From a bacterium (GTDB lineage Bacteria; Zhuqueibacterota; QNDG01; JABMRT01): a stretch of DNA of 51,337 bases. A model generated the notes under the pieces. It made no database searches. It was not told the origin of the DNA and was given only the letters and a program-made list of their open reading frames with translations. The stretch is from contig DSAP01000185.1 in assembly GCA_011046415.1 (NCBI GenBank), forward strand, positions 1 through 51,337. The letters are read 5' to 3'. How positions within the stretch are numbered: position 1 is the first letter of the stretch; the number at the start of each line of letters is the position of its first letter. Made by a program: the position numbers and the translations under genes. Of the stretch, positions 9,848-50,082 are shown in pieces.

Positions 9848-9864
9848 TTTCGGCCTCCTTGTTT

Positions 9865-11133: not shown

Positions 11134-11136
11134 GAA

Positions 11137-11886: not shown

Positions 11887-11973
11887 CCGATTCCTGATGA
11901 AAATACTTCAACACGGAATTTTCGATCGCATTCCCCTCGGCCTTTTCCCAACCGGTTACCGTGTTCCTTGTTT

Positions 11974-12008
11974 TTTTTGAATTTTGAGTCTCGAATCCTC
12001 AATTTTCT
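11974..12008. repeat. Degenerate heptamer tandem repeat between murB and ftsQ
   Basis: TTTTTGA ATTTTGA GTCTCGA ATCCTCA ATTTTCT. Confidence 0.5.
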
Positions 12009-12054
12009 TCCCTCTGCCCGCAAGGACTGATTTCCCGACCTCTCACGCACAGGA

Positions 12055-12978: not shown

Positions 12979-12997
12979 AACGTCTCTGATCGTCCAT

Positions 12998-15522: not shown

Positions 15523-15524
15523 GA

Positions 15525-19119: not shown

Positions 19120-19122
19120 CCC

Positions 19123-20535: not shown

Positions 20536-20814
20536 GCGATCCCTCCGTCTCAGAAGGAAAGAATGATACAGTCCCATGTTGATCGCCGCCTGCCGCGCGG
20601 CGTACCCGGTCTCAAACAAGACCTGTCGATGATGAACCGTCCCGGAAATCAATTCCATATCGAATCCATCCTGTCTGTCCAGATTGTTGCATATCTGCAC
20701 GTTGTCTCTTTCTGTCCGCCTCAACATAGAGACGGACACGTCGCCTCAAACCGTATTCACACCGACCGTTCCGTGATCCTGTCTTCAATTTTCCCCGCGC
20801 CGGTTTTGACTGTT

Positions 20815-22260: not shown

Positions 22261-22385
22261 GCCGGCCGTTTATTTTATTTTCACCCTATCTCAGACAGCC
22301 AATACCTTTATGGTTTGGACAGGACATACCGGATTGTTTTTCCTTTCACCGTAACCCTGTTCCATCCCATTTTCGTATCCCCGTG

Positions 22386-24410
22386 TCATGGACCACACCG
22401 GATCCGGCAAACCAGACCCGGATTAATCCGGGTGCCGGCCCTGGGTTCCTGGGATATCACCCGTCCGCTGCCTTCCGCCTCGACGGCGATTCCGCCGCTG
22501 CCGCACAGTTTCATGGCCTCTCTCAGGCTCATGCCGATCAGATTCGGAACGTGATATTCAGAGACGGCGCGGCTCTCCAATGCCGCGGGATAATATCCGC
22601 CGGCCTCCGGCGACCGGGTTCCGGAACCGGAAACCGGCGCGGACGTGAATGCAAACAACCTGTCGCGGCGTTTGCGAACGGGTTCACTTTCGTGATAACG
22701 GGGTCGGACAGGGAGACTCACGATCCGGTCGACCATTCGTGAGAAAATCGGCGCCGCCGACCGGGACGCCCAGTACTGTTCCCGGGGTTCATCCAGCACC
22801 ACGACCAGCACATATTGGGGGACATCGGCCGGCCAGAACCCGACAAATGAACTGACATGGATGCCCGGCGTGTATCCCCTGACCCCGGGAGATGACTTCT
22901 CGGCGGTTCCCGTCTTCCCCGCGACCGACACCCCATCCACGGCGGCGAGTCTCCCGAGGCCCCGGCTGACCGTCTTCTCGAGGATGACCCGGAGTTCGGC
23001 GGAGGTTTTCTCTGAAATGACCCGGCGGATAACCTTCGGCCGGCCGGTCAGATGAACGCTTCCGTCGGTCCTGAGTATGGAACGTATCAGATAAGGCTTG
23101 ACCAGTTCGCCGCCATTGGCCACAACGGCCGTCATACATGCCATCTGCAGGGCGGACACCGACAGTCCCTGGCCGAAAGCGATGGTCGCCGTGCCGAAAT
23201 CATCCCAACGGTACACCGGGGCCAAAATGCCGGGCACTTCACGCGGGAGATCGATTCCGGTCCGCGTGCCGAATCCGAAATTGCGCACGTACTGGCACAG
23301 TTTCTCCTTCCCCATTTTTTTGGCAATCTTCACCATGCCGATATTGGAGGACAGCTCCATGACTTCCGAGAAAGTGAGCCATTCGTACCTTTCGTTGCGG
23401 TCATGGATGGTATGGGAGCCGACCCGGTACACCCCTTTCTCGCAATAAATCAGGGCGTTCGATTCGAAAAGTCTCTCCTCGAGCGCCGCGGCCGCCGCCA
23501 CAATCTTGAACGTAGAACCCGGTTCGAAATCCCATTGTACGGCCCGATTCTCGACATACTCCTCATAACTCAGTTTGTCTGTATCCGGACGATTCGCCCA
23601 GACGGTCGCCATGGCGATGATTTCTCCCGTATAGGGATCCATCATCACGGCGCATCCGTTCTGCGCCTTATAGGTCTTGATCCCGTTCTGGAGTTCTTCC
23701 TCGAGGATCGATTGGCAGGCATGATCGAGCGTCAGCACGAGATGATGACCGTCGGTCGGCGGTTCAGAGGGCAATTCGAGAGAAGAGAAACTCTGATTAT
23801 GGGCGTCCCGCTGATAGAAGGCCCATCCGTCCGCGCCGCGGAGGTACCGGTCGCAAGCCTGTTCGACTCCGCCGATGGATTTCTGACGCGAATCGATCAC
23901 CCCGATCACCTGTCGCGCCAATGTGCCGTAAGGACGGATCCGTCTCGGTTCTTTCTCCAGGATCAAACCCTCGATCTTCTCTTCGGTAAGCCTGCGGAGT
24001 TCGAGATCCGTCAATCCCCGTTTCACATAGACAAACCGTTTGCCGTCCGATTTTTGGATGAGGTCAAGATACTGTTTTGGGCTACCGCCGAGTATGTCGG
24101 CCAGGACATCGGCCGCCGCATTCACATCCGCAATCAACCTCTGATCGAAAGCGAGATGGTAAACCGTTTGGTCCATGGCAAGGACATCCAGATTCCGATC
24201 ATAGATCTGTCCGCGTTCGGCCGGCATCGGAATCCTTTTCTGATGTTGCTGTGCCGCTTTCTCGATCCAGGGACTGCGGTCGATGACTTGAATGGTAAAG
24301 GACCGGAACAGAATCATCAGAATACCCAGGAAGAAGACCGCGACGAGCTGATGCAATCGTCCCACGGAAACGTGCCGTAACGTTCTGCGGCGCGTGTGTC
24401 GGTACTCCAT
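22386..24410 (-). CDS. ftsI: Class B penicillin-binding protein FtsI/PBP3 with C-terminal PASTA domain
   Basis: ERGQIYDRN, EPGSTFK (SxxK), SSN, KTGT; PASTA VPNLIGMSLREA...GSGRVISQEP. Confidence 0.95.
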   Translation of the reverse strand: MEYRHTRRRTLRHVSVGRLHQLVAVFFLGILMILFRSFTIQVIDRSPWIEKAAQQHQKRIPMPAERGQIYDRNLDVLAMDQTVYHLAFDQRLIADVNAAADVLADILGGSPKQYLDLIQKSDGKRFVYVKRGLTDLELRRLTEEKIEGLILEKEPRRIRPYGTLARQVIGVIDSRQKSIGGVEQACDRYLRGADGWAFYQRDAHNQSFSSLELPSEPPTDGHHLVLTLDHACQSILEEELQNGIKTYKAQNGCAVMMDPYTGEIIAMATVWANRPDTDKLSYEEYVENRAVQWDFEPGSTFKIVAAAAALEERLFESNALIYCEKGVYRVGSHTIHDRNERYEWLTFSEVMELSSNIGMVKIAKKMGKEKLCQYVRNFGFGTRTGIDLPREVPGILAPVYRWDDFGTATIAFGQGLSVSALQMACMTAVVANGGELVKPYLIRSILRTDGSVHLTGRPKVIRRVISEKTSAELRVILEKTVSRGLGRLAAVDGVSVAGKTGTAEKSSPGVRGYTPGIHVSSFVGFWPADVPQYVLVVVLDEPREQYWASRSAAPIFSRMVDRIVSLPVRPRYHESEPVRKRRDRLFAFTSAPVSGSGTRSPEAGGYYPAALESRAVSEYHVPNLIGMSLREAMKLCGSGGIAVEAEGSGRVISQEPRAGTRINPGLVCRIRCGP

Positions 24411-24466
24411 GACGGGTTCCCCGGGTTAAACTGTGATTCCCTCACGACGCATCGGGAGGGTCAAAA

Positions 24467-24877
24467 TCAATGATCGAGACGCAACGGCTGAAACCCGGCC
24501 TGATGCCATCCGGAACGTGACATCACCGTATAAACAGACAATCCGGAGAGATCGACGGGCAGTTCGCCGATGTCGCGGCTGCGTACGGAGACAAGCCCCT
24601 GATTCCGGGCGAGTCGTGATATGCGTTCATAACTCCTCAGTCCGTTCAGTTGAATCCTCAAATCACCGGTCTTTTGCTCCAGGAAAATTTTCTCCTGCCT
24701 GAGACGGTCCGTCTCACGCAACACTTCTTCGATCTGGACCCTTGCCCCCAGATGCAGGACGACCAGTACAAATCCCGAGAGGGTCAGCAGGATGACGGCT
24801 CCGTTCCCTGCGTTTTTACGCGGCGAAACGGCTTTGCGCCGAACGGGTGTTCTCTTCTGCCGGCGCATCGGATTCAC
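24467..24877 (-). CDS. ftsL: Cell division protein FtsL-like
   Basis: Basic N-terminus, one TM, coiled coil ending L.SYERI..LAR; lies between rsmH and ftsI. Confidence 0.8.
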   Translation of the reverse strand: MNPMRRQKRTPVRRKAVSPRKNAGNGAVILLTLSGFVLVVLHLGARVQIEEVLRETDRLRQEKIFLEQKTGDLRIQLNGLRSYERISRLARNQGLVSVRSRDIGELPVDLSGLSVYTVMSRSGWHQAGFQPLRLDH

Positions 24878-25821
24878 CCTCCCCTTTTCTCGGCGGCGCG
24901 CAGGACGGCGCTTCGCGCACGCGGATTCTTTCGGATTTCGGATTCCGAAGCACGGATGCCCCGGGGTGTCAAACTCCTGAAATCGAACCGTTTTTGTCCG
25001 AAAGCGAGTTCCGACCGGGTAAAAGACGGTTCTTCGCCCCGGAAATACCGTTTGACGACTCGGGATTCGAGCCCGTGATACATGATCACCGCCACGCGTC
25101 CGCCGGTTTTAAGAGAGGGATAGATTTTGACGAGACAGTCTGCGAGCTCCTCCATTTCCCCGTTTACGGCGATGCGGAGCGCCTGAAATATCCGCGAAAG
25201 CGATTTGATGTGCCAACGTGCAGGAGTGCATGCCCTGACCGCATCCGCGAGATCGGTCGTGGATTCCAGTGGCGTTTTTTCCCGCATATACACGATCCGT
25301 CTGGCGATTTGACGTGATTTTTTCTCTTCTCCGAATACAAAAAATAAATCGGACAACTTCTTTTCCGGCCAGCCGTTCACGATATCCGCCGCGGTCAGGC
25401 CGCTCCGCCCATCCATACGCATGTCGAGCGGCCCCTCTTTGGAATAACTGAATCCCCGCCGGGCCGCATCGATTTGACGGGAAGAGACACCGAGATCGAG
25501 CAGGAGTCCGTCGATGCGGCGAATGGAAAGTGTGTCGAGGACGGCGTCGATCCGTCCGAACCGGTCATGGATACAGCACAGGCGGTCCCCGAAACGGGAA
25601 AGCCGTTTTCGCGCGGAATCGATGGCCTCCGCGTCCCGGTCGATGCCGATGACCCGCCCGTCCTCCGACAGCCTTTCGAGCAGGGCCTCGCTGTGTCCGC
25701 CCCCCCCGAGCGTCCCGTCCACATAGACACCGGACGTGTCGTTGACCACACAGCCGACGGCTTCCTCCCGGAGAACAGGAACATGATATTCGTTTTCCGG
25801 AATATTCTGCGTGATGCTCAT
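24874..25821 (-). CDS. rsmH: 16S rRNA m4C1402 methyltransferase RsmH (MraW)
   Basis: HVPVL, DGTLGGGGHS, DLGVSS, PLDMRM, FQALRIAVN, NPRARSA. Start placed at MSITQ. Confidence 0.97.
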   Translation of the reverse strand: MSITQNIPENEYHVPVLREEAVGCVVNDTSGVYVDGTLGGGGHSEALLERLSEDGRVIGIDRDAEAIDSARKRLSRFGDRLCCIHDRFGRIDAVLDTLSIRRIDGLLLDLGVSSRQIDAARRGFSYSKEGPLDMRMDGRSGLTAADIVNGWPEKKLSDLFFVFGEEKKSRQIARRIVYMREKTPLESTTDLADAVRACTPARWHIKSLSRIFQALRIAVNGEMEELADCLVKIYPSLKTGGRVAVIMYHGLESRVVKRYFRGEEPSFTRSELAFGQKRFDFRSLTPRGIRASESEIRKNPRARSAVLRAAEKRGG

Positions 25822-25973
25822 GACACGCACCCGATCCGTTCGGCCGGACAGGAGAGGACTGAACAATCTTTCAACCCGGAAATCCATACCGCATCCCGGC
25901 GACCCGCCTGCGGTCGGACCGGCTTCCCCTTGCTGTTTCCCCTGCCCCAAGATTTCATGGCCGATTTTTCCGG

Positions 25974-26711: not shown

Positions 26712-26914
26712 TCAGTGATTAACGATTTGGAATGTACCTGTTTTTCAGAATCCCGGCCTTTTTTACCAGGAGCCAAGGAAAGGGATTCACGATCGTTTTT
26801 CAGATTACATATTCCCGGAACATAATAAATTCATGGCAAGACCCGTCCGGCCTTCTGAAAAGAACCGCCGCCCGGCAGGCAGGCGGTGCGCCATTCAAAG
26901 AAAAAGGTTCTGTC

Positions 26915-29163
26915 GTGAATGCGTCAAACGGCTATCCCCTCGCAGTCATCCTTTTTCTCTGCGGCCTGCTGACCGTCGGATGCTCGAAGAAATCCGATCA
27001 GATTCTGGATCCCTCGGACGGGGAAAAACCGTCCGCCACGGTCACGATCGGCCCGTCCGGAGGCGTCCTGGAAATGGAAGGAATATCGGTCCACATCCCG
27101 GCCGGGACCCTGGATCAGAACACGACGCTTACCGTTTCGGAGTCGGATGCGGAAAACCCGTTCGGAGAGGCGGGTGTGACCGGCCTGTTCCTGATCGGGG
27201 GCCTGCCGGATAACCTGGGTAAACCCCTTCACATCCGTCTGAGGATCCGGGATGGAGCGGAGGTTGACGAAGGCGGCATCGCATACGGCCTCCCGGGAGA
27301 GGCCTTCCTGACCGGAGAACCCGTCACCGTCTACAGCGTCCACGCCGCGGGAGATTCGGCCGGGTATCTGGTCAGCCGGACGGACGATCCGGCAAAAGCC
27401 GGCAAGAGAATGCCGGCCTCGCCCGGGAAATCCTCCGTGAAGGACGCCCTCAATGTCCTCGGCATCGGGAAGAAAACACTGGAATATGATGTCTGGAACA
27501 TCACCTACTGCGGCATGCTGGATCCCTCGCGATTCACGGAGGAGCTGGACCGGGTGTGGATGATTGTCACCGGCGAACTGAATCTGCCCTTTCAAAATAC
27601 GCCCGACCGGTGGGATCCTTATATATTGTATCACTTGCCTTATCAATCCTGGGAATTCCCGATCCGTATTGTCGCGCTGTCGCGACCAGAGCAGATTGTA
27701 AACCTTCGTTACGAGATCATCCTATACAATGCTTTCCCCCCTTTTTTTCCTGTGCTCAACATCGATGAAACCCTGCTCGGCATACAACGATCCGCGGACG
27801 TAGTCCGGTGTCTGGGTCCGGCCGTTCTGGCGTTGTCCCTCAACACGTATCACCCGCCGTACATCTGGTTGAATCTCGCGGTGATCGCCTGGTCTGGAGA
27901 ATTCTTTTCCGATCCGGATACCGAGGCCGGATCCGTTCAGGGGAATAATCAGATGGCCCCGTTCCGGGGCATGGAGGCCGGTTTTTCAGGCGATCGGGTA
28001 AACCGCCACGGACACAGCCTCGGGATGGCGGCGGTGATCAAATACCTGGTGGACCGGCCCTCCCTTTTCGGAAAAGAGGGACTCCGGAGAACCTATGACA
28101 GACTCCTGGACGGACGGGAGAACCACAACGCCGCCCTGCTCCGAAGCATCGACGCGCTGCCCGCGGAATGGTGGCCCGATTTCTTCAAATCCTATATCGG
28201 CGGAGAGATCTACGGCGTCCCGCCGTCCGTGTTCACGGAAAACGCCTCCGGCACCTGGATCCTCGCGTCGGAAGAGGATGAGCAGACGACCTTTGCCTCC
28301 GATTATCCCGACATGTCGGCCGAACTCTTCCTGGTGGATGTCCAGAACCCGGATATTCACGACGGCGATCGTCTCATCGTCGACGTGTCGGGCACCGTGG
28401 CCGGACAGGGGCTGACGGCGATGATTTTTGCGGTCAATGGAAACAAACTGGACTTCCTGGGCATGGAACACGCGGCTTCTGCCGGACTCCGGCTGACCGG
28501 CATGAAGGCGAAATATGACGCCGGGATCCGCCGGTATCTCGTCGCGGTCGTGAACAGCAACCGGAATGAAACATACACGGGTTCGACGCATATCGAACTG
28601 ACCCTGCGGCATGAGAAAGCACCCGATGAGGTCCCGGGTTTCGTCCAGTGCGATGTATATCTGAATATTCTGATGGAAAGGGAGGACTGGAATACCTATG
28701 ACGGACGAAACACCATCATGACCACACTCAACATCTCGGACGCCGTCTCGATGGCCGGAACTTTCTCAAACAACCGATTCGAAGGAAGCCGGACCTATGA
28801 CATCACGGGGGGATTCTTCGCCGAGAGCGGAACCTGGACCGATTCGGTCGCCCTGACGCTCGGCTCGGACTTTCAGAGTATTTTAAGTCTTGATTATACG
28901 GGCATCGGAACGATACTGAACAAGGACGGGACCACCACCCATACGACAAGACATTTCACCGCCGCGAATATCCCGCACAGCCGAGAGACTTCGATGATCC
29001 CCATACCTACCATATCGGGGAGGAGGGAACCTGTTCCGTGATCACCGGCATTTTCTTTGAGAGTCTCGACTACCGCGGCGAATCCCTCGTCGGATCCAGG
29101 ATCGGCACGGGATATTATGAGTGTGATACATGGAGCGCGATTACGGTGCGGTTGCGGAATTGA
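26915..29163 (+). CDS. Large multidomain lipoprotein (ZU5-like N-domain, degenerate zincin-like core, beta-rich C-domain); apparent -1 frameshift near 28980
   Basis: GTG start with AAAGG RBS, lipobox LTVG-C, TIGPSGGVL...IPAGTL. The -1 frame continues DFDDPHTYHIGEEGTCSVITG...ECDTWSAITVRLRN to TGA 29163, just before a terminator. Confidence 0.75.
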
Positions 29164-29325: not shown

Positions 29326-30633
29326 GTGATGACAAAGATCCATTCCCGCGATGCCGGAAATCCCGCATACGACTGGTATACCCTGGACAATGCGGCCAAG
29401 ATTTATCCGTCGACCGCCTCTGAACATTCTCCGGCTGTGTTCAGACTTTTCGTGACACTGAAAGAACCTGTTAAATCTTGGATCTTACAGCAAGCGATCG
29501 AAGCAGTCATGCCCCGCTTTCCGTATTTTCAGGTCTATCTGAGGCGGGGATGGTTTTGGTATTATCTTCAAAGGCACCATCACATACCCCGGATACGGCC
29601 ACTGGAACCGACACCCGTATCCCGAATACCTGTCCGCGCCGGATCCTCGCATTTACTCCATGTCAGTGCCGGCAGGAACATCATCGCCGTTGATTTCTCG
29701 CATATCCTGACCGACGGGAACGGCGGAATCCGGTTTCTGATCTCATTGATCGCGGAATATCTCAGGTTATGTGGCATGCCGATCGGGTCGCATGAAAATT
29801 TTTTGCATCCTCAAGATCCGCCCCATCCAGAAGAATATGAAGATGCATACAAAAGATACTTCATAAAGGGGGCTCCGGGTCCGGGACACTATTCTCCCGC
29901 CTATCATATCCCGGGAAGACCCGCTCAGGCCGGCCGTTTCCGGACAATCACAGGTAGAATCTCCGTCGACCAGATGCTGGATCGAACAAGAAAAGAGGGC
30001 GTGACTCTGACCGAATATCTTGCGGCGTTGATGATATATTGCCTGGCCCGGATTTACCAGGAGGAAGTCGACCAAGGGAAAAAACATCGAAGGTCCATCA
30101 TCCGGCTTGAGGTGCCTGTCAATTTAAGGTCCTTTTATCCCTCGGGCACCATGAGGAATTTTTCTCTTTACGTATCCCCGGAGATTGACATGAAACTGGG
30201 GCCGTACGATTTTGAAGAACTGTTGAAGCACGTCCATCACAGCATGCGGATCCAGATCAATCGGAAAGAACTCAGCAGGCAGATTTCCCGTAATGTGGGT
30301 GCCGAGTTCAATCCGTTGATCCGTTTTTTACCTCTTTTCATAAAAGACCGTTTTGTAAACTGGATTCATTCAAGAATGGGAGAACGGCTCTATTCCGGGG
30401 TGCTTTCGAATCTGGGCAAGATCTCTCTCCCGGCGGAAATGGAATCCTCGGTTCAATCCATTCATGTTGTGCTGAGCCCCAATCGGATGATGAAAACAAG
30501 CTGTACGGTTATCGGTTATCAAAACGATATACATATCAACTTCTGCAGCCTGGTGGAGAGCCGGAATCTGGAGAGACTGTTTTTTACACACCTCGTTGAA
30601 TACGGTATTTCTGTACACATCAAGGAGTCGTGA
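29326..30633 (+). CDS. Alcohol acetyltransferase-like / condensation-fold acyltransferase
   Basis: WY.LDNAAKIYP N-terminal signature, HILTDG (HxxxDG), PVNLR.FYPS.TMRNF, SNLG. Confidence 0.8.
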   Translation: MMTKIHSRDAGNPAYDWYTLDNAAKIYPSTASEHSPAVFRLFVTLKEPVKSWILQQAIEAVMPRFPYFQVYLRRGWFWYYLQRHHHIPRIRPLEPTPVSRIPVRAGSSHLLHVSAGRNIIAVDFSHILTDGNGGIRFLISLIAEYLRLCGMPIGSHENFLHPQDPPHPEEYEDAYKRYFIKGAPGPGHYSPAYHIPGRPAQAGRFRTITGRISVDQMLDRTRKEGVTLTEYLAALMIYCLARIYQEEVDQGKKHRRSIIRLEVPVNLRSFYPSGTMRNFSLYVSPEIDMKLGPYDFEELLKHVHHSMRIQINRKELSRQISRNVGAEFNPLIRFLPLFIKDRFVNWIHSRMGERLYSGVLSNLGKISLPAEMESSVQSIHVVLSPNRMMKTSCTVIGYQNDIHINFCSLVESRNLERLFFTHLVEYGISVHIKES

Positions 30634-41345: not shown

Positions 41346-43697
41346 TCAGGAACCGCCGGATTCTCTCCGGTACGCGGTAAACCGGATCGTCCGGGAGAAC
41401 CCTTCCGTATCCTGCACGGTGAGGCGGTGAACGCCCGGGAACAGGTCGACCGCGAGTTCATGCCGGTGCCGGGGTTCTCCGATGATGGTGCCGTCCAGAA
41501 TCCAGAAGAGGACGGCATCCGGGTGCTGGTGGCGGGCCTGGAATACGATCCGCTGATGCCGTCCGTCCAGATCACGCGGGATGAGGATGCGAAGGTCGTT
41601 CACCGGATAGATCAGCGCGAGACGATCCGGGTCGTTCGTGACCGGACACCGGTCGGCATGGAGAGGAATCGCGTCCATGCGGCGGCCGGCGCGCCCCAGG
41701 ATATCCCGGGCCTGGGCAGGCACGATGTAGCGGATCGCGCGGACCGTGTCGACCCCCGTCCAGCAGAGCGAACAGACGGATCGCCCCGTCTTCCGGTCGA
41801 GCACATACCGCCGATGAAACCGGCAGACGCCGGCCCGCCATGCGCATACGGGACGCATATCGATCACGGTTCCGGGACAGTATGGGCCGGCCGGATATCC
41901 GCTTTCGGTGCAGCATGGGATTTCGGCCAGGTCATGGAGCGGCTCCTCGAACCAGACCGGTTCGGACGGATCCGTGAGTTGATTGAAGAGCATGAAGAGG
42001 AGGGGCGCCGCCGAATTCGCGCCCCCGATTTCGGCATTTCCCTCTCCGGTAAAATTGCCGGCCCAGACGCCGATCGTCCATTGCCGGTTCACACCGACGG
42101 CCCATCCGTCTTTCTGGCCGTAACTGGTCCCCGTCTTCCAGGCCACCGGCACCCGCCCCCCGAACTGACGCCAGTAATATTCCACACCCGGCCTGGCCAG
42201 CCGGGTCAGGGCGTTCAGGACCAGCCAGGCGGCGCCTTCGCCGCAGATCCGCTCCGGTCCCGGGGTAATGTCATCGTCTCCAAACAAAGTCAGGGGTATC
42301 CGCTTTCCCAGATTGCCGAGCCCGAGGTAGAGTCCGGTCAGTTCCCAGAGGGAGGCTTCCGCCCCGCCGAGGATCAGCGAGAGGCCGTACCCGTCGGCGG
42401 AACGGAACAGGTAATTCAGTCCGTTCTGCTTCAATGCGGCATGAAAATCGTGCAGCCCGTATTCGTTGAGCAGGCGAACGGCCGGGACGTTCAGCGAATG
42501 GAGGAGCATCTCCTCGAGCGTGACCAGGCCGCGGAAGCTTTTCCCGGCATTCTGCGGCGCGAACGTGCCGTAAAAGGTCGGCACATCCTGGATCACGGAC
42601 CGGAGTGTGTACGGACCACGGTCGAGACACAGGGCCGCAAGGAAGGGTTTGAGCAGGCTGCCCGTCGAACGGGGTGCCTGCACCCCGTCGACCTGACCGC
42701 TGTATTGGTCGTCGAAAAAGGATTCCGAACCCACATACGCCCGGACACGACCCGTCCGGGTCTCGACGGCGAGCACGGCCATGTTGAAGATACCCCGTTC
42801 CCGGAGATCCCGCGAGACGGGACGGATCAGGGACTCGACCCGGGCCTGGAGGGCGCGGTCGAGCGTGGTGCGGAGGGATCTTTGGTCGGACAGCCGGGAT
42901 GCGCGGAGTGTCGCGTGCGGCGCGAGGAAGGGCAGGCGGTTGCCGCCTTCGGGCAAAGGCTCGTCCCGGGCGATCATGCAGGACACGGAATCCAGGACGC
43001 CCGTATCGCGGAGCCGTTCCAGCAGGCGGTTACGCCTGATGAGGAGGAGATCGCGTCCCTGATCGAGATTGATCAGGGACGGCGCATTGGGAAGGATGAC
43101 GAAAAGCGCCGACTCGGCCCAGGTCAGTTCCGTGACGGGCCTGCCGTAATAGCGGTAGGATGCCGCCTGGATGCCGACGACATTCCCGCCCATGGGGACA
43201 TTCGAGGTATACATCCGCAGGATTTCGGATTTATTGAAATGGACGGAGAGCCGCAGCGCCGCGGCGGTCTCGCGGATCTTGTTCCACACCGTCCTCGGTT
43301 TGGGGTCGGCGAGCCGGGCCACCTGCATCGTGATCGTACTGCCGCCGCGCACGATCCGTCCTGCGCGGATGTTCGTGATCAAGGCGCCGGCCAGGGCCCG
43401 GATATCCACGCCGGGATGGGAGAAGAAACGCCGGTCTTCCCATTCCCGCAGCGCCCTGAGATACTTGTCGGGAAGCGGCATATCCTCTGCCGGAAACCTG
43501 AGCTGTTCGTCCCGGGGCAGGAAGATTCGAAGGAGATCTCCGTGCCGGTCGAACACGACCGTCGCCGTGTCGCCGCGGAAGGGACAGGCCATCGGCCTCA
43601 ACAGCCAGACCAGACCGGCCAGGAAAAATACGGCCGGCAGGCAAAGCCGGTGGTGACGGGACAGGCGTTTCAGCATCTTTTTAATGATTTTTCGCAT
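41346..43697 (-). CDS. pbpC: Penicillin-binding protein 1C
   Basis: EDRRFF.HPGVD, GGSTITMQVAR, STGSLLKP, SLN, WKTGTSYG.KDGW, C-terminal BiPBP_C-like domain. Confidence 0.95.
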   Translation of the reverse strand: MRKIIKKMLKRLSRHHRLCLPAVFFLAGLVWLLRPMACPFRGDTATVVFDRHGDLLRIFLPRDEQLRFPAEDMPLPDKYLRALREWEDRRFFSHPGVDIRALAGALITNIRAGRIVRGGSTITMQVARLADPKPRTVWNKIRETAAALRLSVHFNKSEILRMYTSNVPMGGNVVGIQAASYRYYGRPVTELTWAESALFVILPNAPSLINLDQGRDLLLIRRNRLLERLRDTGVLDSVSCMIARDEPLPEGGNRLPFLAPHATLRASRLSDQRSLRTTLDRALQARVESLIRPVSRDLRERGIFNMAVLAVETRTGRVRAYVGSESFFDDQYSGQVDGVQAPRSTGSLLKPFLAALCLDRGPYTLRSVIQDVPTFYGTFAPQNAGKSFRGLVTLEEMLLHSLNVPAVRLLNEYGLHDFHAALKQNGLNYLFRSADGYGLSLILGGAEASLWELTGLYLGLGNLGKRIPLTLFGDDDITPGPERICGEGAAWLVLNALTRLARPGVEYYWRQFGGRVPVAWKTGTSYGQKDGWAVGVNRQWTIGVWAGNFTGEGNAEIGGANSAAPLLFMLFNQLTDPSEPVWFEEPLHDLAEIPCCTESGYPAGPYCPGTVIDMRPVCAWRAGVCRFHRRYVLDRKTGRSVCSLCWTGVDTVRAIRYIVPAQARDILGRAGRRMDAIPLHADRCPVTNDPDRLALIYPVNDLRILIPRDLDGRHQRIVFQARHQHPDAVLFWILDGTIIGEPRHRHELAVDLFPGVHRLTVQDTEGFSRTIRFTAYRRESGGS

Positions 43698-43777
43698 GGT
43701 CCCTTTTACAGTGATTCAGGGAAAACGGACATTGGTTGTCATTCAAAGGAACCGTGCAAACCGATCCTCGCCCTTTC

Positions 43778-45130
43778 TCATCCGCCGTCTTCGGTTTTGC
43801 GGAGGGTAAAACAAAAAGTGCTGCCTTTGCCCTCCCCGCCCGATTCCACCCAGATTTTTCCCCCGTGCCGTCCCACGATCTTCTTGCACAACGCCAGGCC
43901 GGCCCCGGTACCCGGATAATCCCGATCCGTGTGCAGACGTTTGAAAATCAGGAATATCCTTTCGAAATATTCGGGATCGATGCCGATGCCGTTGTCCCGG
44001 ATCAGGAACCGATAATCCTGTTCGCCCGTTTCCGCCCGGATATAGATCCGGGGAATCGGGGCGTCACAGAATTTGACGGCATTGTCGACCAGATGAATAA
44101 ACACCCGGTACAGCTGTTTTCTGTCGCCCATGACCGTCGGCAGGGATTCATACGATAAAGACGGTTTTCTCTCTTTGTATTTATTTCGGATCTGCACATC
44201 GACCGTCTCGACCAGTTTTGTACAGTCGACCGGTTCGAAAGGCCTGCCGTGCGTGTTTACCTGTGAAATAACACGCACATCATTGACCAGGTCCTGGATG
44301 CGAAGACCGCCCTCGACGATGAATGTCATGAAGGTGTCGGCTTCTTCGTTAAAATAGTCTTCATGACGCCGTTTGAGCAGCTGGGAATAGCTGACGATGT
44401 TGCGTATGGGTTCCTGAAGTTGATGGGAGGCGATAAAAAAGAATTGTTCCAGTTCCGCGTTGGTACGGGCCAGCTCCTCCGCCTGACGTTCCAGGGTCCG
44501 TTCCGCCTCCATGCGTTCTTCGATCTCTTTCTGAAGGGCGAGATTGAGTTCGGTCAGTTTTCGCGTCCTCTCCCGGACGCGCATCTCCAGCTCATCCCGC
44601 GGCAACAGCGCGATCCGCTCTTCTTCGAGTATCCCTTTCGGCAAATGCCTGAGTATATCGAAAGCCAGCGGAGAATCGGTGTACCGGTTCCGGATCTGCG
44701 TAAACCCCTGGACCAGGGCCTCCTCCGAACGTTCCGGGGAAACCGATACGGAGTGAAGTTCATGCAGCCGGGATAAAAGGTCCGAGAAAACCATATTGAT
44801 TGCTTCGATACGCCCGGTTTCGGGGAGTCTTTCGACATTCAATATCACCGGCTCCAGATCGACTTCGCCCCCCCGACCCGGACTGCATCCTTCAAAGAGT
44901 ATGGGATTCAGTTCAAAATATTCGGCCAGGAATGCTTCCGACACGTTATTCGCTTCGAACTCTTTGAGGTAGAGCGGGATCAGGCTGCAATAGGCTTCGG
45001 CAAGAAGCGCATCGTCTTTGGGAGAAATGGATTTCTTGCGTTTCCGTTTTCTGTTAAAACCGTGCGCAGGGAAAAGGCCCCGGCGGATCGATCCTTCCGC
45101 GTGATGGAAAAGCTGTCGCAGGACATTCAT
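43778..45130 (-). CDS. Soluble sensor histidine kinase (unrecognised N-terminal domain, coiled coil, HisKA, HATPase_c)
   Basis: H-box ASHQLQEP, N-box HLVDNAVKF, DNGIGI, F.RLH, GAGLALCKKIV..HGG. ATG overlaps the upstream TGA (ATGA, 45127-45130). No TM seen. Confidence 0.92.
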   Translation of the reverse strand: MNVLRQLFHHAEGSIRRGLFPAHGFNRKRKRKKSISPKDDALLAEAYCSLIPLYLKEFEANNVSEAFLAEYFELNPILFEGCSPGRGGEVDLEPVILNVERLPETGRIEAINMVFSDLLSRLHELHSVSVSPERSEEALVQGFTQIRNRYTDSPLAFDILRHLPKGILEEERIALLPRDELEMRVRERTRKLTELNLALQKEIEERMEAERTLERQAEELARTNAELEQFFFIASHQLQEPIRNIVSYSQLLKRRHEDYFNEEADTFMTFIVEGGLRIQDLVNDVRVISQVNTHGRPFEPVDCTKLVETVDVQIRNKYKERKPSLSYESLPTVMGDRKQLYRVFIHLVDNAVKFCDAPIPRIYIRAETGEQDYRFLIRDNGIGIDPEYFERIFLIFKRLHTDRDYPGTGAGLALCKKIVGRHGGKIWVESGGEGKGSTFCFTLRKTEDGG

Positions 45131-46308
45131 GGAGACTCGACTCCTGTCAATGCGCCGACGAGATCCGCCCACTCTTCACGGTCGAACAATCCCGGAGAGA
45201 TGGACAGCAGGACAATCGCATCCGTTTCGGAACACAATGTAGTCAAATCCGAGAGCAAATCGCGGGTTTTTTTTAACCCGTTGACGAGTTTGATCTGATC
45301 GATGCAATCGACGAACAGGATGGGCGCTTGGGTTTGCCTGACGAACTGGGATACGATCGCGGTCAATCCGTCCAGGTCTTTCGGGGAAATCGTATCCGGT
45401 TTCCCGTCGAACGTCAGGTGGAAAACCGGCGTCTTCGCGAGCCGGTATCGCTTTCTGATTTTATCGGGTGCCAGCTTGGTGATGCACAATCCGGAACGCC
45501 GATGGGTGATCTGATCGAAAAAGACGTCATATCCCCGATCGGGCCTGACCTCCCGGATATAATAACAGCGTCCGGGAAGAAGTGAATACTTCAATGGGAC
45601 GTCCGACGGCTTCTCGGCTGAGGGAACCACGATGAATAACTTGTGTTTCAGTACGGCGTAGAAAACAGAGACCGTCCAGATGATGCTCAGGGTGGTCCCG
45701 ATCTCCGGGGTCGATTTACCCGGATCGGGCAGGATCACATTGCTCAGCGTGGCCAGCAGCAAGAAAACCGCACTGCCGAACAGGAGCGGTCTGGCCTGTT
45801 TTTTCTCGATGAGGATATTCTTCCGGATGACTCCGATCAGCAGATAGGTGGCAAAAATGTATAAAAACAGATAATAAAGGGCATAGGCGCCGACGGCCTT
45901 CCCCGGAAGGGAAGTATATCCGTAAAACATGCGATAGGGTTCCGGCAAATAGATCAGATCGGTGAATAAAAACAGGATCAGGAAGAGGACGGCGGGACCA
46001 TAGAGGATGAAACAGGTCGCATTCTTCTGAAGGATTCTTTTTCGGTCCGCAAACACCAGGACAAAATGGACCCAGAGGCTCTGCATGAAACACCATCCGA
46101 AACCGCCGGCCCGGATCAGGATCAATGCGGTTCCCTGACCGACATCGAGCCGGTGTCCGAATTCGGTGAGACACCAGATCGCCAGCGACAGGGAATACAT
46201 CGCAAAAATCCGGCTCAACAGGCTGCGCGGTATCAGGAAGAAAACATAGATCCCCAGCATGACATGGAGAACACCCGGGACCAGCGATAAAAACGCCCAT
46301 ATGGACAT
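45127..46308 (-). CDS. Membrane sensor: HisKA_7TM-like N-terminal domain fused to DUF835 (inactive KaiC-like) domain
   Basis: About 7 hydrophobic segments with LAIWCLTEF, HFVLVF and YAVLKHKLF. C-domain GLCITK..P..IR.RY.L..TPV.HLT, ISP..L, LFVDCIDQI..VNG..T..LL..L. Confidence 0.8.
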   Translation of the reverse strand: MSIWAFLSLVPGVLHVMLGIYVFFLIPRSLLSRIFAMYSLSLAIWCLTEFGHRLDVGQGTALILIRAGGFGWCFMQSLWVHFVLVFADRKRILQKNATCFILYGPAVLFLILFLFTDLIYLPEPYRMFYGYTSLPGKAVGAYALYYLFLYIFATYLLIGVIRKNILIEKKQARPLLFGSAVFLLLATLSNVILPDPGKSTPEIGTTLSIIWTVSVFYAVLKHKLFIVVPSAEKPSDVPLKYSLLPGRCYYIREVRPDRGYDVFFDQITHRRSGLCITKLAPDKIRKRYRLAKTPVFHLTFDGKPDTISPKDLDGLTAIVSQFVRQTQAPILFVDCIDQIKLVNGLKKTRDLLSDLTTLCSETDAIVLLSISPGLFDREEWADLVGALTGVESP

Positions 46309-46494
46309 ATGCCACCCCGTCGAATGATCAAGCCGGCTTTGACGGCTTCATTGAATTTTTAAATCTGCGTGATCTCATGCGCCCCGCCTCAAAATGGTGA
46401 AAGTGCGGTAGCCCCTCGTCGCTCGCATCCAACCGCTGACCATCGCTTTGGATACCCCGAAACCCTCCCTCACGCCATTCGCGAATCTTTCAGG

Positions 46495-47694
46495 TTAAAT
46501 GACTCCCGACTCTTTTCCGACTTCCCGGAAAATATCCAGGGCGCGGTCGATCTGGGAGAAGGTATGCGTGGCGATCACCGTACACCGGATCCTGCTCTGG
46601 TTCGCGGCGACGGCCGGCCAGGAGATGGCCGAGGCGAGAATCCCCCTCTCGAACAGCAATCTGGACATCCGGATCGTCTTCTCTACATCCCCGATGATGA
46701 TCGGAATAATCTGGGTTTCACTGTTGGACAGGCTGAAACCGATTTGTTTCAATCCCTCTTTGAAACGGTGCACATTCTTCCAGAGATTGTCTCTCAACCC
46801 CGGATTGTTCCGGATGATCCTCAGCGCGGCCAGGATGCCGGCGGCCTGTTCCGGAGGCAGGGAAGAACTGAACATGAAGGGGTGCGACCGCATCCGGAGC
46901 GTCCCGAGCACATCCGGAGGACCGGTGACAAATCCCCCCATGGCCCCGAGAGCCTTACTCATCGTCCCCATCTCGAAATCAATTTCCCCCTCTACATGAA
47001 AAAATTCGGGAGTCCCCCGTCCGTTCTCGCCGATGATTCCCGTGGCGTGTGCATCGTCGACCATTACCATGGCGCCGTACCGGCGGGCCAGGGAAACGAT
47101 GTCCGGCAGGGGCGCGAAGTCGCCGTCCATGCTGAACACGCCGTCGGTGAGGATCAGTTTCCGTTTGGCCTGACTCCGCTTGAGAATCATTTCCAGATGG
47201 TTCATGTCATTGTGCTTGAACGTCTTGGTCGGCGACCGGCTGAGCCGGCAACCGTCCACCACGCTGATGTGGGACAAATAGTCCTTGATGATCAGGTTCT
47301 CGTCGTTGTCGATCGTCGGCAGTCCGAGTCCCTCGAAACTGTCCATGATGGCGGGAATGATGCCGATGTTGGCCGCGTATCCGGACTGAAAGATCAGGGC
47401 CGCGGGCTCCTTCTTGAACTCCGCGATCGCCGCTTCCAGTTCTTCCAGGATTTTCAGGTTTCCGGCGACCCATCTCGATTCGCAGGTACCGATCCCGTAC
47501 CGTTCGACGGCCTCGACGGCGGCCTTCTTCACTTCCGGATGCGTGGCGAGACCCAGATAATTGTTCGAACAGAGACAGAGATAGGGTTTCCCTCCGATGA
47601 CGATTTCGGGATACGGGATCTCATCCACGACCCGCAAGTCCGAATAAAAATCGCGGTCCTGAGCGGCTTTATGCAGTTGTCTTAAATATTCCAT
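46495..47694 (-). CDS. PLP-dependent alpha-oxoamine synthase family enzyme (BioF/Kbl/SPT/CqsA-like); substrate unassigned
   Basis: SNNYLGL, F.SGY.AN, DGVFSMDGD, DDAHATG, GTMSKALG (PLP Lys). Atypical DYLSHISVVDG and GTCESRWVAG. Confidence 0.88.
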   Translation of the reverse strand: MEYLRQLHKAAQDRDFYSDLRVVDEIPYPEIVIGGKPYLCLCSNNYLGLATHPEVKKAAVEAVERYGIGTCESRWVAGNLKILEELEAAIAEFKKEPAALIFQSGYAANIGIIPAIMDSFEGLGLPTIDNDENLIIKDYLSHISVVDGCRLSRSPTKTFKHNDMNHLEMILKRSQAKRKLILTDGVFSMDGDFAPLPDIVSLARRYGAMVMVDDAHATGIIGENGRGTPEFFHVEGEIDFEMGTMSKALGAMGGFVTGPPDVLGTLRMRSHPFMFSSSLPPEQAAGILAALRIIRNNPGLRDNLWKNVHRFKEGLKQIGFSLSNSETQIIPIIIGDVEKTIRMSRLLFERGILASAISWPAVAANQSRIRCTVIATHTFSQIDRALDIFREVGKESGVI

Positions 47695-48205
47695 TCCGCA
47701 GTCTCCTCTGGAGCATCCCCATCATGCAGGTCCGGGTCACGACACAGGCCGAACAGATCAGGAACACGTGTGTAAACACGTATACAACGCTGAAAACGGG
47801 ATAAACGATCGCGTAAATCGGATGGAGTTTGTACAGCCAATAAATCGGAAAGAGAATCAATGAGACCGCGACGGCGGTGGCGCCCAATTCGAGGAACCAG
47901 TTGAGCCCGGCCCCGGTTTTCTCCATTTTATTGTAGAAAAACAGACGGTAAAATACCGGGGCGAGGATGAAGCCTCCGATGGGATGGCATCCTTTGCCGG
48001 CATGGGGGCATTTCAGGTCTTCACAGCAATACGCCTCGAGGAGATTGGCGACCAGCCAGATGGCGATATAGATCAGCGAAAGCAGAGGAGCGAACCGCCA
48101 CAGAGCGATGATCACCAGGATCATGACCGTAAAAACCGGGACCATGAGTATCCAATACAACGTTTGTCTTTCACAGCGTGCACAGGGCTGTTCGCTTTTT
48201 GTCAT
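47669..48205 (-). CDS. Cys-rich four-TM hypothetical membrane protein
   Basis: CARC, two TM hairpins each followed by a Cys cluster (CCEDLKCPHAGKGC; CSACVVTRTC). GAGGA RBS before MTKSEQ; overlaps the downstream gene by 26 nt. Confidence 0.7.
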   Translation of the reverse strand: MTKSEQPCARCERQTLYWILMVPVFTVMILVIIALWRFAPLLSLIYIAIWLVANLLEAYCCEDLKCPHAGKGCHPIGGFILAPVFYRLFFYNKMEKTGAGLNWFLELGATAVAVSLILFPIYWLYKLHPIYAIVYPVFSVVYVFTHVFLICSACVVTRTCMMGMLQRRLRNGIFKTTA

Positions 48206-48283
48206 ATGCAATCGTCCTCTCTGTTTTCGTATGGGATTTCGGGTTTCACCGGCCTCCGGCGCCATATTCATATTTTCGGAATC

Positions 48284-49156
48284 TCAATCCTTCTCGGTCT
48301 GGATCTCGAACGGATTGAGCAGCGGGCTGTAGGATGCCGCGAGACGGTCGCGGAAGGGCTCGAGCGACTGCCGGATCACCCCGGGCAGGCCGTCCGCCCA
48401 GACCAGGCGCCGGCGATCCAGTTCGAGTGCATCCATCTCGCGCACGAGTGTGCGCTGCCATCCGGTGCCGGTCTGACCGGAGGCTTTGAATGATTTCAAC
48501 TGGCAGTCGAGCCATCCCAGGGAAAGGCGGCGCACCCTGAGGATGATCTGATCCGCCCGTTCCGTACGCAACCGCTCGTTTTTCTCCGGATCCGCATCGT
48601 CCCAATCGAAATCCCCTGTATCGTGATATCCGAACAGGGGGAAATCGGGACCGTCTCCGGGATGATATCCCAGAAACGCATAATACGCCGTGATATAGAG
48701 GTACGTATATTCCCCGGGTCCCATGCCGGCATCGAGCAATGCCTCGTTACGGCGGGTGTAATATTCGGCCAGTCCGGGCAGGGCGCCGAATCCCTTCCGG
48801 ACGAGCCCCAGGATCTTCCAGAACGGCGACCCGGTCTCCCGGACATCCTTGAAATCCCGAGAAAGTTCTTCGACTCCCTCTTCCATCAGGCTTCGCGAAT
48901 CCGCCGTGTTTTCCCGCACCGAGAGGAAAGTCTCAATCCGGTCCGCGGGGATGCGCCCGTCCGCGGGGGGACAATAGTCCTCGATCCGCCCGTAACGCTC
49001 CTCGATCGCCCTCATGGTCGTCCCGGTCTCTTCGAACGATTTCACCGTATCCTTGACCAGGAAAAATCCGGTCCCGCAGAGCAGCACGAAAAGCATCAGG
49101 ATCACACCGCATCCGATGCCGCATCCGATCATCACTTTCTTGGTGGTGTCTGTCAT
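48284..49156 (-). CDS. Hypothetical membrane-anchored protein
   Basis: KKVMIGCGIGCG-type N-terminal anchor, helical body; GAGGGAG RBS before MTDTT. Confidence 0.75.
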   Translation of the reverse strand: MTDTTKKVMIGCGIGCGVILMLFVLLCGTGFFLVKDTVKSFEETGTTMRAIEERYGRIEDYCPPADGRIPADRIETFLSVRENTADSRSLMEEGVEELSRDFKDVRETGSPFWKILGLVRKGFGALPGLAEYYTRRNEALLDAGMGPGEYTYLYITAYYAFLGYHPGDGPDFPLFGYHDTGDFDWDDADPEKNERLRTERADQIILRVRRLSLGWLDCQLKSFKASGQTGTGWQRTLVREMDALELDRRRLVWADGLPGVIRQSLEPFRDRLAASYSPLLNPFEIQTEKD

Positions 49157-49230
49157 ATCTCCCTCACGATGTGAACGGAATCTGTTTGTCGGACAATCCC
49201 CGCATCGCATGATTCACGGACGGGTTTTGG

Positions 49231-49272
49231 ATTTCTGATTCCTGATTTCTGATTCCTGATTTGAGATTCCCG
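49231..49272. repeat. Heptamer tandem repeat (6 units)
   Basis: ATTTCTG ATTCCTG ATTTCTG ATTCCTG ATTTGAG ATTCCCG. Confidence 0.85.
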
Positions 49273-49346
49273 ATCCGGTTTCAGCCATTTTCTCCGTTTC
49301 CCGTTCCACTTTTCCGTCCCGGAATAATCGAGGCGGTCTTTTGATC

Positions 49347-50082
49347 TCACCATTCCCGGCGCAGATTCTGTTTCAAATACCGTTCCATGATGCGACGGAT
49401 GAACTCCTCCGTATCTATCGTCATGCCGATTTCACAATTGGGGGGCCGGCTTTCATCGAGAACCGTATACCCCTCGTCGGTGACGCGCACATGCGCCTTA
49501 CGCGTGGAGAACAGCTCGGGCCAGAGCGCCATGCCCACGGCCACCACGTCGAACAGGGTCGGGTCCGGCCGGGCATACTCCTCATACAGCCACAGGGTAT
49601 ACAGGCCGCAGAGTGCATTCGTCAGCGGCGACTGCCGCATGAGAAGCCGGAGCCGGTTCGCCTCATCGAGGCGGACGAAGGTCGTGATGTCGAGTCCCGC
49701 CAGGGTCGGATTCGCCCCGGAGGAGACGAATTTCTGCGCGGCCGGGATGTCGGCGCGGACGTTCCATTCGGCGTCGATGACGGGACCGGTCGAATATCCC
49801 ATGTAAAAGGAGCCGAACATGGCGATCACCCTTTTGGCGAGTTTCAGCGCTTCGGGATCCTTCTGGATCACATCCCGCATGTTCGGAACCGGTCCGACCG
49901 TGACCAGGATGACCTCCCCGGGATATTTACGCAGATTCCGGACTCGCAAGGATCAGGGCGACCGCGAACGCATCGTCGATGTCGCCGCCCAGGTCGCAGT
50001 CGAATATGATTTTCTGTCTTCCGGACGCATGGGAAAAAACCGCCAGGCACGTTGCGCACAACAGGATCCCCCAGTGTTTCAT
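49347..50082 (-). pseudogene. Secreted inosine/uridine-preferring nucleoside hydrolase, disrupted by an internal out-of-frame deletion at ~49935-49942
   Basis: AAGGAGG RBS, signal peptide, KIIFDCDLGGDIDDAFA...ASPE then stop. The other frame resumes at NLRKYPGEVILVTVGP.PN, MFGS, AEWNV..D, GLDIT, LFD. The intervening family segment is missing. Confidence 0.8.

Follow-up and report, generated by a model that had tools for sequence, protein, structure and literature searches.

An alpha-oxoamine synthase (AOS) encoded on the 51,337-nucleotide contig DSAP01000185.1 of a bacterium of the Zhuqueibacterota (assembly GCA_011046415.1; this whole stretch is called the window below) belongs to a gene cassette in which it is followed by a membrane protein that combines a seven-transmembrane (7TM) domain with a DUF835 domain, called the receptor here after its proposed role, and by a histidine kinase. 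Enzyme, receptor and kinase are a conserved unit that is inherited together, and the cassette AOS stands outside biotin and threonine metabolism. We propose that the AOS makes a small aminoketone-derived signal, which the 7TM-DUF835 protein would sense and relay to the kinase in a manner resembling CqsA/CqsS but with different parts, and that the cassette is a self-contained, horizontally mobile signalling unit. Judged from the sequences, we consider this joint reading slightly better than an even bet, with a probability of roughly 0.55.

In the window the cassette consists of four open reading frames (ORFs), all on the minus strand and together spanning positions 43778-48271 of the ORF listing, in the order Cys-rich membrane protein, AOS, 7TM-DUF835 protein and histidine kinase:

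47669..48205, minus strand: CysTM, a Cys-rich membrane protein with 4-5 helices, 178 amino acids (aa); its ORF is open back to 48271
46495..47694, minus strand: AOS of a distinct clade, dependent on pyridoxal phosphate (PLP), 399 aa; assigned from a PF00155 match, motifs and the tree
46309..46494, minus strand: spacer between the AOS and receptor genes, 186 nt, read from the sequence
45127..46308, minus strand: 7TM (HisKA_7TM) plus DUF835 membrane protein, 393 aa; assigned with Pfam
43778..45130, minus strand: soluble histidine kinase; with the ATG at 45130 as start its length is about 450 aa; assigned from HATPase_c and the HisKA region
44474..45040, minus strand: Xdom, an all-helical N-terminal domain of the kinase, about 190 residues; without a Pfam model and conserved in the cassette kinases

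The original prediction for this stretch had described four co-oriented genes in two overlapping pairs 186 nt apart, and this layout was confirmed in every detail.

The linkage of synthase, receptor and kinase was surveyed from both sides. An alignment of 24 receptor homologues led to 11 loci from species-representative genomes, nine of which hold a full-length receptor orthologue. At seven of these nine an AOS (59-64% identity) lies directly upstream and ends 1-20 nt before the receptor gene; of the AOS at locus L009, just the last 34 residues are on the contig. The remaining two loci are L010 and L013, whose tandem receptor copies lack an AOS. From the enzyme side, an alignment of eight clade AOS proteins gave 80 metagenome loci, which split into 33 at 58% identity or more to the window AOS (the clade loci) and 47 at 46% or less. 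Eight of the 33 end too early to be judged, and in 23 of the 25 informative loci that are left a 7TM-DUF835 gene lies directly downstream of the AOS. The 47 non-clade AOS loci, which served as the control, have no 7TM-DUF835 gene downstream (0/47; at least 1 kb of downstream sequence is present in 39 of them), and 29 of the 39 non-clade AOS that were scanned pass the BioF equivalog cut-off. A kinase with Xdom follows the receptor at all seven genome loci and all 14 metagenome loci that have enough contig. The carriers are bins labelled KSB1, CSSED10-310, Poribacteria, Marinimicrobia and Desulfobacteraceae. The four-gene arrangement is far beyond chance. The neighbourhood analysis that had been called for thus found the linkage kept, and the fallback that the synthase is an unrelated neighbour was rejected, because linkage to receptor and kinase is kept in five or more lineages that bear different labels. 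In a Poribacteria-labelled bin, a clade AOS (P0192) and a DUF835 protein (P0017) were found as consecutive accessions on one contig of 8,980 bp.

It could be argued that the enzyme is an ordinary BioF or Kbl lying beside a two-component sensor by chance. Most members of the clade are publicly annotated as 8-amino-7-oxononanoate synthase, the window enzyme scores just 24 bits under the cut-off of the BioF model TIGR00858 (402.6 against 426.45), and its best solved relative by sequence is the bifunctional BioF/Kbl enzyme of Thermus (284 bits, compared with 134 bits for the solved CqsA). Membership of the alpha-oxoamine synthase family is clear from PF00155 (185.7 bits against a cut-off of 19.7) and the catalytic motifs, and the protein aligns over its full length to solved BioF/Kbl, Kbl and SPT (serine palmitoyltransferase) chains. 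The motifs of the family comprise a stacking His, Asp-x-x-His, the Schiff-base lysine of Thr-x-Ser-Lys and a carboxylate-binding Arg; the columns H142, S188, D213, D214, H216, T244, K247 and R370 are invariant in the clade together with the Kbl and SPT-like paralogues. Nevertheless, the window enzyme stays under every NCBIfam equivalog cut-off tried. Besides BioF, for which the clade members of five other genomes also remain below the cut-off (408-414 bits), this holds for Kbl (NF005394, 407 against 460 bits; TIGR01822, 331.9 against 493), for the BioF/Kbl subfamily TIGR01825 (423 against 535), for SPT (NF047600, NF047599 and NF047603 with 355.5 against 640, 319.8 against 500 and 279.2 against 670, respectively), for 5-aminolevulinate synthase (268 against 338.55) and for CqsA/LqsA (NF005526, 221.4 against 428). 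By the last of these scores the enzyme is not a relative of CqsA/LqsA.

Sequence features and phylogeny set the clade apart as well. The enzyme shares 38-46% identity with metagenome BioF proteins of equivalog level, and the clade carries a 12-residue insertion in the stretch from the SGxxAN helix to the PLP-stacking histidine; counted from SGxxAN to this His, the spacing is 30 in 29 of 31 clade rows and 18 in 28 of 33 BioF-like rows, the remainder being misses of the pattern. In a maximum likelihood tree of 73 rows, which was built without any CqsA sequence, the cassette AOS and a subgroup of 403-aa proteins form one group (support 100/98) and all insertion-bearing AOS fall together (99/97), with Kbl (100/100) and the BioF of E. 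coli and Azospirillum outside. The synthase is thus separate from genuine BioF and Kbl, and since its linkage to receptor and kinase is also kept, the outcome named as refuting the original prediction is contradicted on both points. A 403-aa AOS of the cultured Lucifera butyrica (P0263, WP_165865981.1), 58% identical, was found inside the cassette clade on this tree.

The genomes that carry the cassette give no indication that it serves biotin synthesis. In the window genome (G000; 3.1 Mb, 91.8% complete) BioA and BioB remain far under their cut-offs (244 against 405 and 33 against 225 bits) and BioD has no match, and in the five other cassette genomes, the completeness of which is unknown, neither BioB nor a BioA above the cut-off was found. 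With no BioA, BioB or BioD over the cut-off, there is no biotin pathway in which the cassette AOS could act, and the organism of the window looks like a biotin auxotroph at 91.8% completeness. The window genome contains two further AOS paralogues. One is a genuine Kbl (606.7 bits against a cut-off of 460) that adjoins Tdh on contig C57 (L003:37-2440), and the role of Kbl is thus already filled by a separate tdh-kbl pair; the other is SPT-like (566 bits against 640) and is located on contig C53 (L002:1328-2542). Close to the cassette itself, no biotin, threonine-catabolism or receiver-domain genes occur among the 28 other ORFs of the window and the four neighbours that were scanned, which agrees with the earlier statement that biotin and threonine-catabolism genes are lacking nearby. 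Since the receptor linkage is found at 23 of 25 clade loci against none of 47 other AOS loci, BioB and BioA above the cut-off are each found in none of the six cassette genomes, a true tdh-kbl pair is present elsewhere in the window genome and the enzyme branches apart from both BioF and Kbl, a chance placement of an ordinary BioF or Kbl is strongly disfavoured, and we regard it as very improbable.

Co-inheritance of the parts is evident on two scales. In G002, a genome of the same family as the window genome, the genes for CysTM, AOS and receptor follow one another as they do in the window, and in a set of 41 related genomes these two are the only ones to have any of the three, be it a clade AOS (>750 bits), a full-length receptor (>590 bits) or CysTM. 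Over 23 loci (253 pairs), the pairwise distances of AOS and receptor are correlated with r = 0.97, a value reached in none of 2000 Mantel permutations; this shows that AOS and receptor were inherited as one unit and is not by itself evidence of binding.

The receptor matches both HisKA_7TM (43.7 bits against a cut-off of 28.6) and DUF835 (64.8 against 33.1), so that the earlier 7TM-DUF835 assignment stands, and it belongs to a class of membrane proteins with about 70 homologues that share both domains. The "archaeal-type" label given to it does not hold, as the receptor is not specifically archaeal and its architecture is common in bacterial metagenome bins. Neither the consensus nor the invariant DUF835 columns of the 24-homologue alignment contain the GK[ST] Walker A motif expected of an active KaiC/RecA-type ATPase, and a profile weakly matches the archaellum KaiC-like protein FlaH (E 0.032). 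Galperin et al. (2018; PMC5847659) describe the DUF835 of archaeal response regulators as an output domain of the inactivated KaiC (iKaiC) type, a label with which the missing Walker A agrees. In the window genome DUF835 and Xdom are each encoded by a single gene, and the two genes are adjacent. In two genomes of the same order, the Pfam 7TM domain of the receptor also belongs to one-piece 7TM-PAS-HisKA-HATPase kinases (604 and 647 aa), which supports the view of the cassette as a split sensor kinase.

Receptor genes were also encountered without the enzyme. L010 (7001-9397) and L013 (5766-8173) contain tandem 7TM-DUF835 pairs without AOS or kinase, located beside beta-propeller proteins predicted to be secreted by the type IX secretion system. 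The genome of L010 also has a complete cassette (L016), and a clade AOS was not found in the genome of L013. On the receptor tree these AOS-less tandem copies are one branch, nested among the AOS-linked receptors and next to the receptor of L016.

The kinase belongs to the two-component histidine kinases of the HisKA class. HATPase_c is matched with 90.4 bits (cut-off 26.4), the HisKA score of 24.5 lies just under its cut-off of 26.9, an H-box with SH is present, and many curated kinase models are matched by its last 240 residues (e.g., with 146.9 bits). Its layout is Xdom, coiled coil, HisKA and HATPase_c. No hydrophobic segment was detected in the window kinase by a Kyte-Doolittle scan, and the earlier description of a soluble kinase is thus correct for this protein, and also for that of L009; it fails as a general trait, because most cassette kinases carry about five transmembrane (TM) helices ahead of Xdom. 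An exhaustive search among 1.84 billion representatives recovered 47 clusters with Xdom at E <1e-10. In the 21 Xdom proteins that were scanned, Xdom is mostly followed by PAS and by HisKA, HisKA_2 or HisKA_3 kinase cores, and one protein (P0084) is an Xdom-PAS-DUF835 fusion. The AlphaFold 2 model of Xdom (mean confidence score pLDDT 79.7) is all-helical with a long coiled coil at its end. Searched with Foldseek against the PDB it gave nothing at E up to 0.001, and the best Z in a wide VIA-align search was 6.2, mostly due to the coiled coil and at noise level for helical models. These failed searches, based on a predicted structure, do not make the Xdom fold a new one.

The most elaborate versions of the cassette are of the Desulfobacteraceae type. 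In L011, L012 and L018 a hybrid kinase with two receivers is followed by a histidine phosphotransfer (Hpt) protein and then by a sigma-54 response regulator, and the same order of hybrid kinase, Hpt and sigma-54 regulator recurs in L042 and L043; L036 and L037 show part of it. At nine loci whose lineages encode a sigma-54 activator, a sigma-54-like motif, TGGCAY-N5-TTGC, is found 130-390 nt upstream of the AOS gene (L011:5476, L012:1473, L036:1586, L038:1008, L043:5868, L056:1295 and copies). These nine occurrences in 18.7 kb correspond to 0.48 per kb against a background of 0.055, an enrichment of about nine-fold.

Taken together, these parts suggest how the proposed signalling might proceed. 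The cytosolic PLP-dependent AOS, having departed from primary metabolism, would condense an amino acid with an acyl-thioester to an alpha-aminoketone, and this compound or a spontaneously or enzymatically formed derivative (a hydroxyketone or a pyrazine) would be the small, probably lipophilic signal. The 7TM domain would sense it in or at the membrane; in related genomes, one-piece histidine kinases have a 7TM domain of this kind as their sensor. The cytoplasmic DUF835, an inactivated KaiC-like module, would hand its state to the kinase by contacting Xdom; we infer this contact from the strict pairing of the two genes and from the Xdom-PAS-DUF835 fusion. The kinase would in turn phosphorylate a response regulator encoded outside the window. 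In the Desulfobacteraceae-type cassettes the relay would run from the hybrid kinase via Hpt to the sigma-54 activator within one operon, and a sigma-54-like promoter upstream of the synthase could then provide positive feedback. In the lineage of the window, CysTM, which appears to be translationally coupled to the synthase, would be an optional helper with a possible role in metal or redox chemistry, acyl handling or export.

The closest functional parallels are the alpha-hydroxyketone quorum-sensing systems CqsA/CqsS-LuxU-LuxO of Vibrio and LqsA/LqsS of Legionella. As in the cassette, an enzyme of the AOS family is encoded there directly next to a polytopic membrane sensor from which a histidine-kinase phosphorelay starts, and the hybrid kinase, Hpt and NtrC-type sigma-54 regulator of the Desulfobacteraceae-type cassettes stand in the same order as CqsS, LuxU and LuxO. 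However, by its score the cassette enzyme falls outside the CqsA clade, the sensor is split into a 7TM-DUF835 protein and a separate kinase with a new N-terminal domain whereas CqsS is a single six-TM hybrid kinase, and the accessory genes (CysTM or a secreted family, F3) differ. The cassette does not, therefore, belong to the CqsA/CqsS family, as the model defining the enzyme is not reached and the receptor is built differently. Of the quorum-sensing-like analogy that had been proposed for this locus, the pairing of synthase and receptor is supported by the conserved linkage and the analogy itself is strengthened by the versions with hybrid kinase, Hpt and sigma-54 regulator, but kinship with CqsA/LqsA and a specifically archaeal type of receptor have to be dropped.

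Other comparisons concern individual parts. BioF and Kbl share the fold and catalytic motifs of the cassette AOS, which differs in scoring under both cut-offs, in its 12-residue insertion, in its position outside both on the tree and in the lack of a biotin pathway in the carriers searched. SasA is a histidine kinase that docks on KaiC via its N-terminal domain. The pairing of a kinase that has a dedicated N-terminal domain with a KaiC-family module is, conceptually, similar in the cassette, but DUF835 lacks Walker A and Xdom is predicted by AlphaFold 2 to be all-helical rather than of the KaiB-like thioredoxin fold. The one-piece HisKA_7TM kinases share the 7TM domain, which in the cassette is fused to DUF835 with the kinase as a separate polypeptide. 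In the archaeal response regulators of PMC5847659, as far as they are described in its accessible part, DUF835 is likewise the output end of a signalling protein; the cassette protein differs from these in having a 7TM domain instead of a receiver as its input, in being bacterial, and in its linkage to a dedicated kinase partner and a synthase, neither of which is mentioned there.

A second type of cassette was observed in the course of the survey. It consists of a GH3-like adenylating enzyme (GH3_M, 32.7 bits) and a TM-DUF835 protein of about 530 aa, followed by an Xdom sensor or by an AOS cassette (L014:3-3154, L015:2044-5255, L044:2262-5473 and L017:448-5326). In L014, L015 and L044 the GH3-like enzyme and a 533-aa TM-DUF835 protein precede the AOS cassette. 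The trio of GH3-like enzyme, TM-DUF835 protein and Xdom sensor also occurs in an archaeal bin labelled Hydrothermarchaeota, the bacterial and archaeal versions of enzyme and receptor being 45% and 32% identical, respectively. On the receptor tree, the GH3-linked proteins make a separate branch.

It is conceivable, though we would not favour it on the sequences at hand, that the AOS cassette is the first example of a broad and so far undescribed class of chemical communication modules in prokaryotes, in which an enzyme forming a small molecule is combined with a dedicated TM-DUF835 receptor and a new helical docking domain on a histidine kinase. Depending on the lineage, the enzyme would be an AOS of this clade or a GH3-like amido synthetase, the latter also in an archaeon. 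Under this tentative extension, the AOS product might represent a new chemotype of autoinducer (an aminoketone, hydroxyketone or pyrazine) and the orphan receptors of L010 and L013 might be eavesdroppers.

The direction of regulation may also be the reverse of what we propose, with receptor and kinase sensing an external nutrient or stress and the AOS, as their regulated output, degrading or detoxifying an amino acid or acyl-CoA. Two-component genes often adjoin their targets, the sigma-54-like promoter lies upstream of the AOS where a sigma-54 regulator is encoded, and the secreted F3, which is encoded divergently in 17 loci, could be another target. However, the AOS is the first gene in the transcription unit of its supposed regulators, at a distance from the receptor gene that often ranges from a 4-nt overlap to 20 nt, and no conserved transporter or further catabolic enzyme accompanies it at the mapped cassette loci. 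The correlation of AOS and receptor distances also speaks against such a role of the enzyme, though shared descent alone could produce it. Finally, a GH3-like biosynthetic enzyme takes the place of the AOS beside a different TM-DUF835 protein, which fits enzyme-receptor pairs better than one shared stimulus. Regulated output thus seems to us a rather improbable role for the AOS.

There are, on the other hand, several observations that weigh against the signalling reading. Two clade loci, L034 and L047, lack the receptor, the latter near a Mutator transposase. Many loci are near-copies, so that about 6-7 independent sublineages are represented, and the enrichment of the sigma-54-like motif rests on three or four independent sequences. 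The metagenome scan used two peptide patterns, which missed groups of insertion-bearing AOS at 44-53% identity, and the gap between 58% and 46% identity is for this reason partly a sampling effect. A response regulator was not found among the 28 other window ORFs and four neighbours. Moreover, the SPT-like enzyme of the window genome is the sister of the whole insertion-bearing AOS group rather than a member of it, and the sister group of the cassette clade, with L073 as a member, is linked to a short-chain dehydrogenase. This position on the SPT side and the dehydrogenase-linked sister group hint, as far as a tree can tell, at a lipid-base ancestry of the AOS. At L073 (121-2117), an insertion-bearing AOS is followed with a 4-nt overlap by the dehydrogenase, an arrangement that recalls long-chain-base synthesis.

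These last points lead to another explanation, in which the AOS makes the base or head group of an aminolipid (sphingoid- or sulfonolipid-like) and receptor and kinase monitor this lipid within one cell, as a loop of membrane-lipid homeostasis. Apart from the sister relationship with the SPT-like enzyme and the dehydrogenase that follows the nearest non-cassette relatives as in long-chain-base synthesis, it would account for the two membrane proteins, CysTM and the 7TM receptor, that accompany the enzyme, and for its neighbours in the window, which are cell-envelope genes (PBP1C and the dcw cluster). Against it, none of the 40 mapped cassette loci has a conserved reductase, N-acyltransferase, acyl carrier protein or acyl-CoA ligase by the AOS, the SPT score of 355.5 bits is far under 640, and an SPT-like paralogue is already present in the window genome. 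The patchy occurrence of the cassette, in 2 of 41 related genomes, would also be unusual for a core lipid pathway. We consider lipid homeostasis unlikely on balance, somewhat less so than a role of the AOS as regulated output.

The accessory parts of the cassette vary between lineages. CysTM has no Pfam or NCBIfam family and is rare, with five clusters among 5.8 billion proteins. Nine of its 178 residues are Cys, and in nine sequences C60, C61, C66, C73, H74, H146, C151, C154 and C160 are invariant; such a set of seven Cys and two His would suit a site for metal or redox chemistry. The AOS gene is immediately preceded by that of CysTM in the window and in L008, L014, L015, L016, L033 and L044. 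As it is present in the window and in only 6 of 40 other mapped cassette loci, and never together with F3, CysTM was rejected as a core part. Its AlphaFold 2 model (pLDDT 72) is a helical bundle for which the fold search returned no clear solved relative (best Z 7.4, noise level), and the ESM Atlas yielded unnamed clusters only. DHHC palmitoyltransferases are four-TM proteins with a Cys-rich loop; they appeared in the fold search with Z 5.9 and 5.0, within the noise, and are kept as a lead only.

Proteins of the F3 family are about 190 aa long, carry a signal peptide and match no Pfam model; they are encoded divergently upstream of the AOS in 17 loci (e.g., L043:4750-5316, minus strand). F3 and CysTM never occur in one locus. 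A shorter relative of F3, f12, is present in L025, L027 and L032. In the ESM Atlas, F3 shows a weak resemblance to outer-membrane beta-barrels, with a poor model.

With respect to the gene boundaries in the window, the AOS gene overlaps the stop end of the CysTM ORF by 26 nt. This ORF extends over 47669-48271, and the ATG at 48205 is preceded by a GAGAGGA ribosome-binding site; because of this site and because homologues align from residue 21 or 23, translation of CysTM probably starts here, giving 178 aa. The kinase ORF (43778-45172) opens with a GTG, and the ATG at 45130, which has AGGAG upstream and an ATGA overlap with the receptor stop, is more likely to be the start. At other loci the AOS-receptor junction ranges from a 4-nt overlap up to about 160 nt. 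No Rfam match (E up to 0.1) was obtained over 43000-49500, and the counts in a promoter and terminator scan were not above those in shuffled sequence.

Around the cassette, the window encodes PBP1C, a protease and other unrelated proteins as well as a dcw cell-division cluster. The dcw cluster (8642-25950, minus strand; mraW, ftsI, mur genes, ftsQ, ftsA and ftsZ) looks complete and ordinary. Two ORFs of 769 and 435 aa at 26732-29041 and 29326-30633 (plus strand) match nothing in Pfam at E up to 1e-5. Directly upstream of the cassette and in the same orientation, 48284-49210 (minus strand) encodes a protein of 308 aa that has a single TM helix at its N-terminus and falls into no Pfam or NCBIfam family; the gene stops 12 nt ahead of the first in-frame ATG of the CysTM ORF. 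As a candidate member of the cassette it was rejected, having no family and being absent from every fetched locus.

A full-text literature search that covered few subscription journals found no description of this cassette in print, which is not proof of absence. To the best of our knowledge, few autoinducer chemistries are known and nearly all of these come from cultured Proteobacteria and Firmicutes. If our proposal is correct, the cassette would provide a compact set of enzyme, receptor and kinase parts that could be rebuilt in a laboratory host, and a role would be assigned to DUF835 and to an unnamed input domain of kinases. It would also mean that proteins annotated as "8-amino-7-oxononanoate synthase" include a signalling clade that is not involved in biotin synthesis, which would correct metabolic reconstructions that credit a biotin step to its carriers. 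For the little-studied groups in which the cassette occurs, it would represent a testable synthase-receptor pair for signalling.

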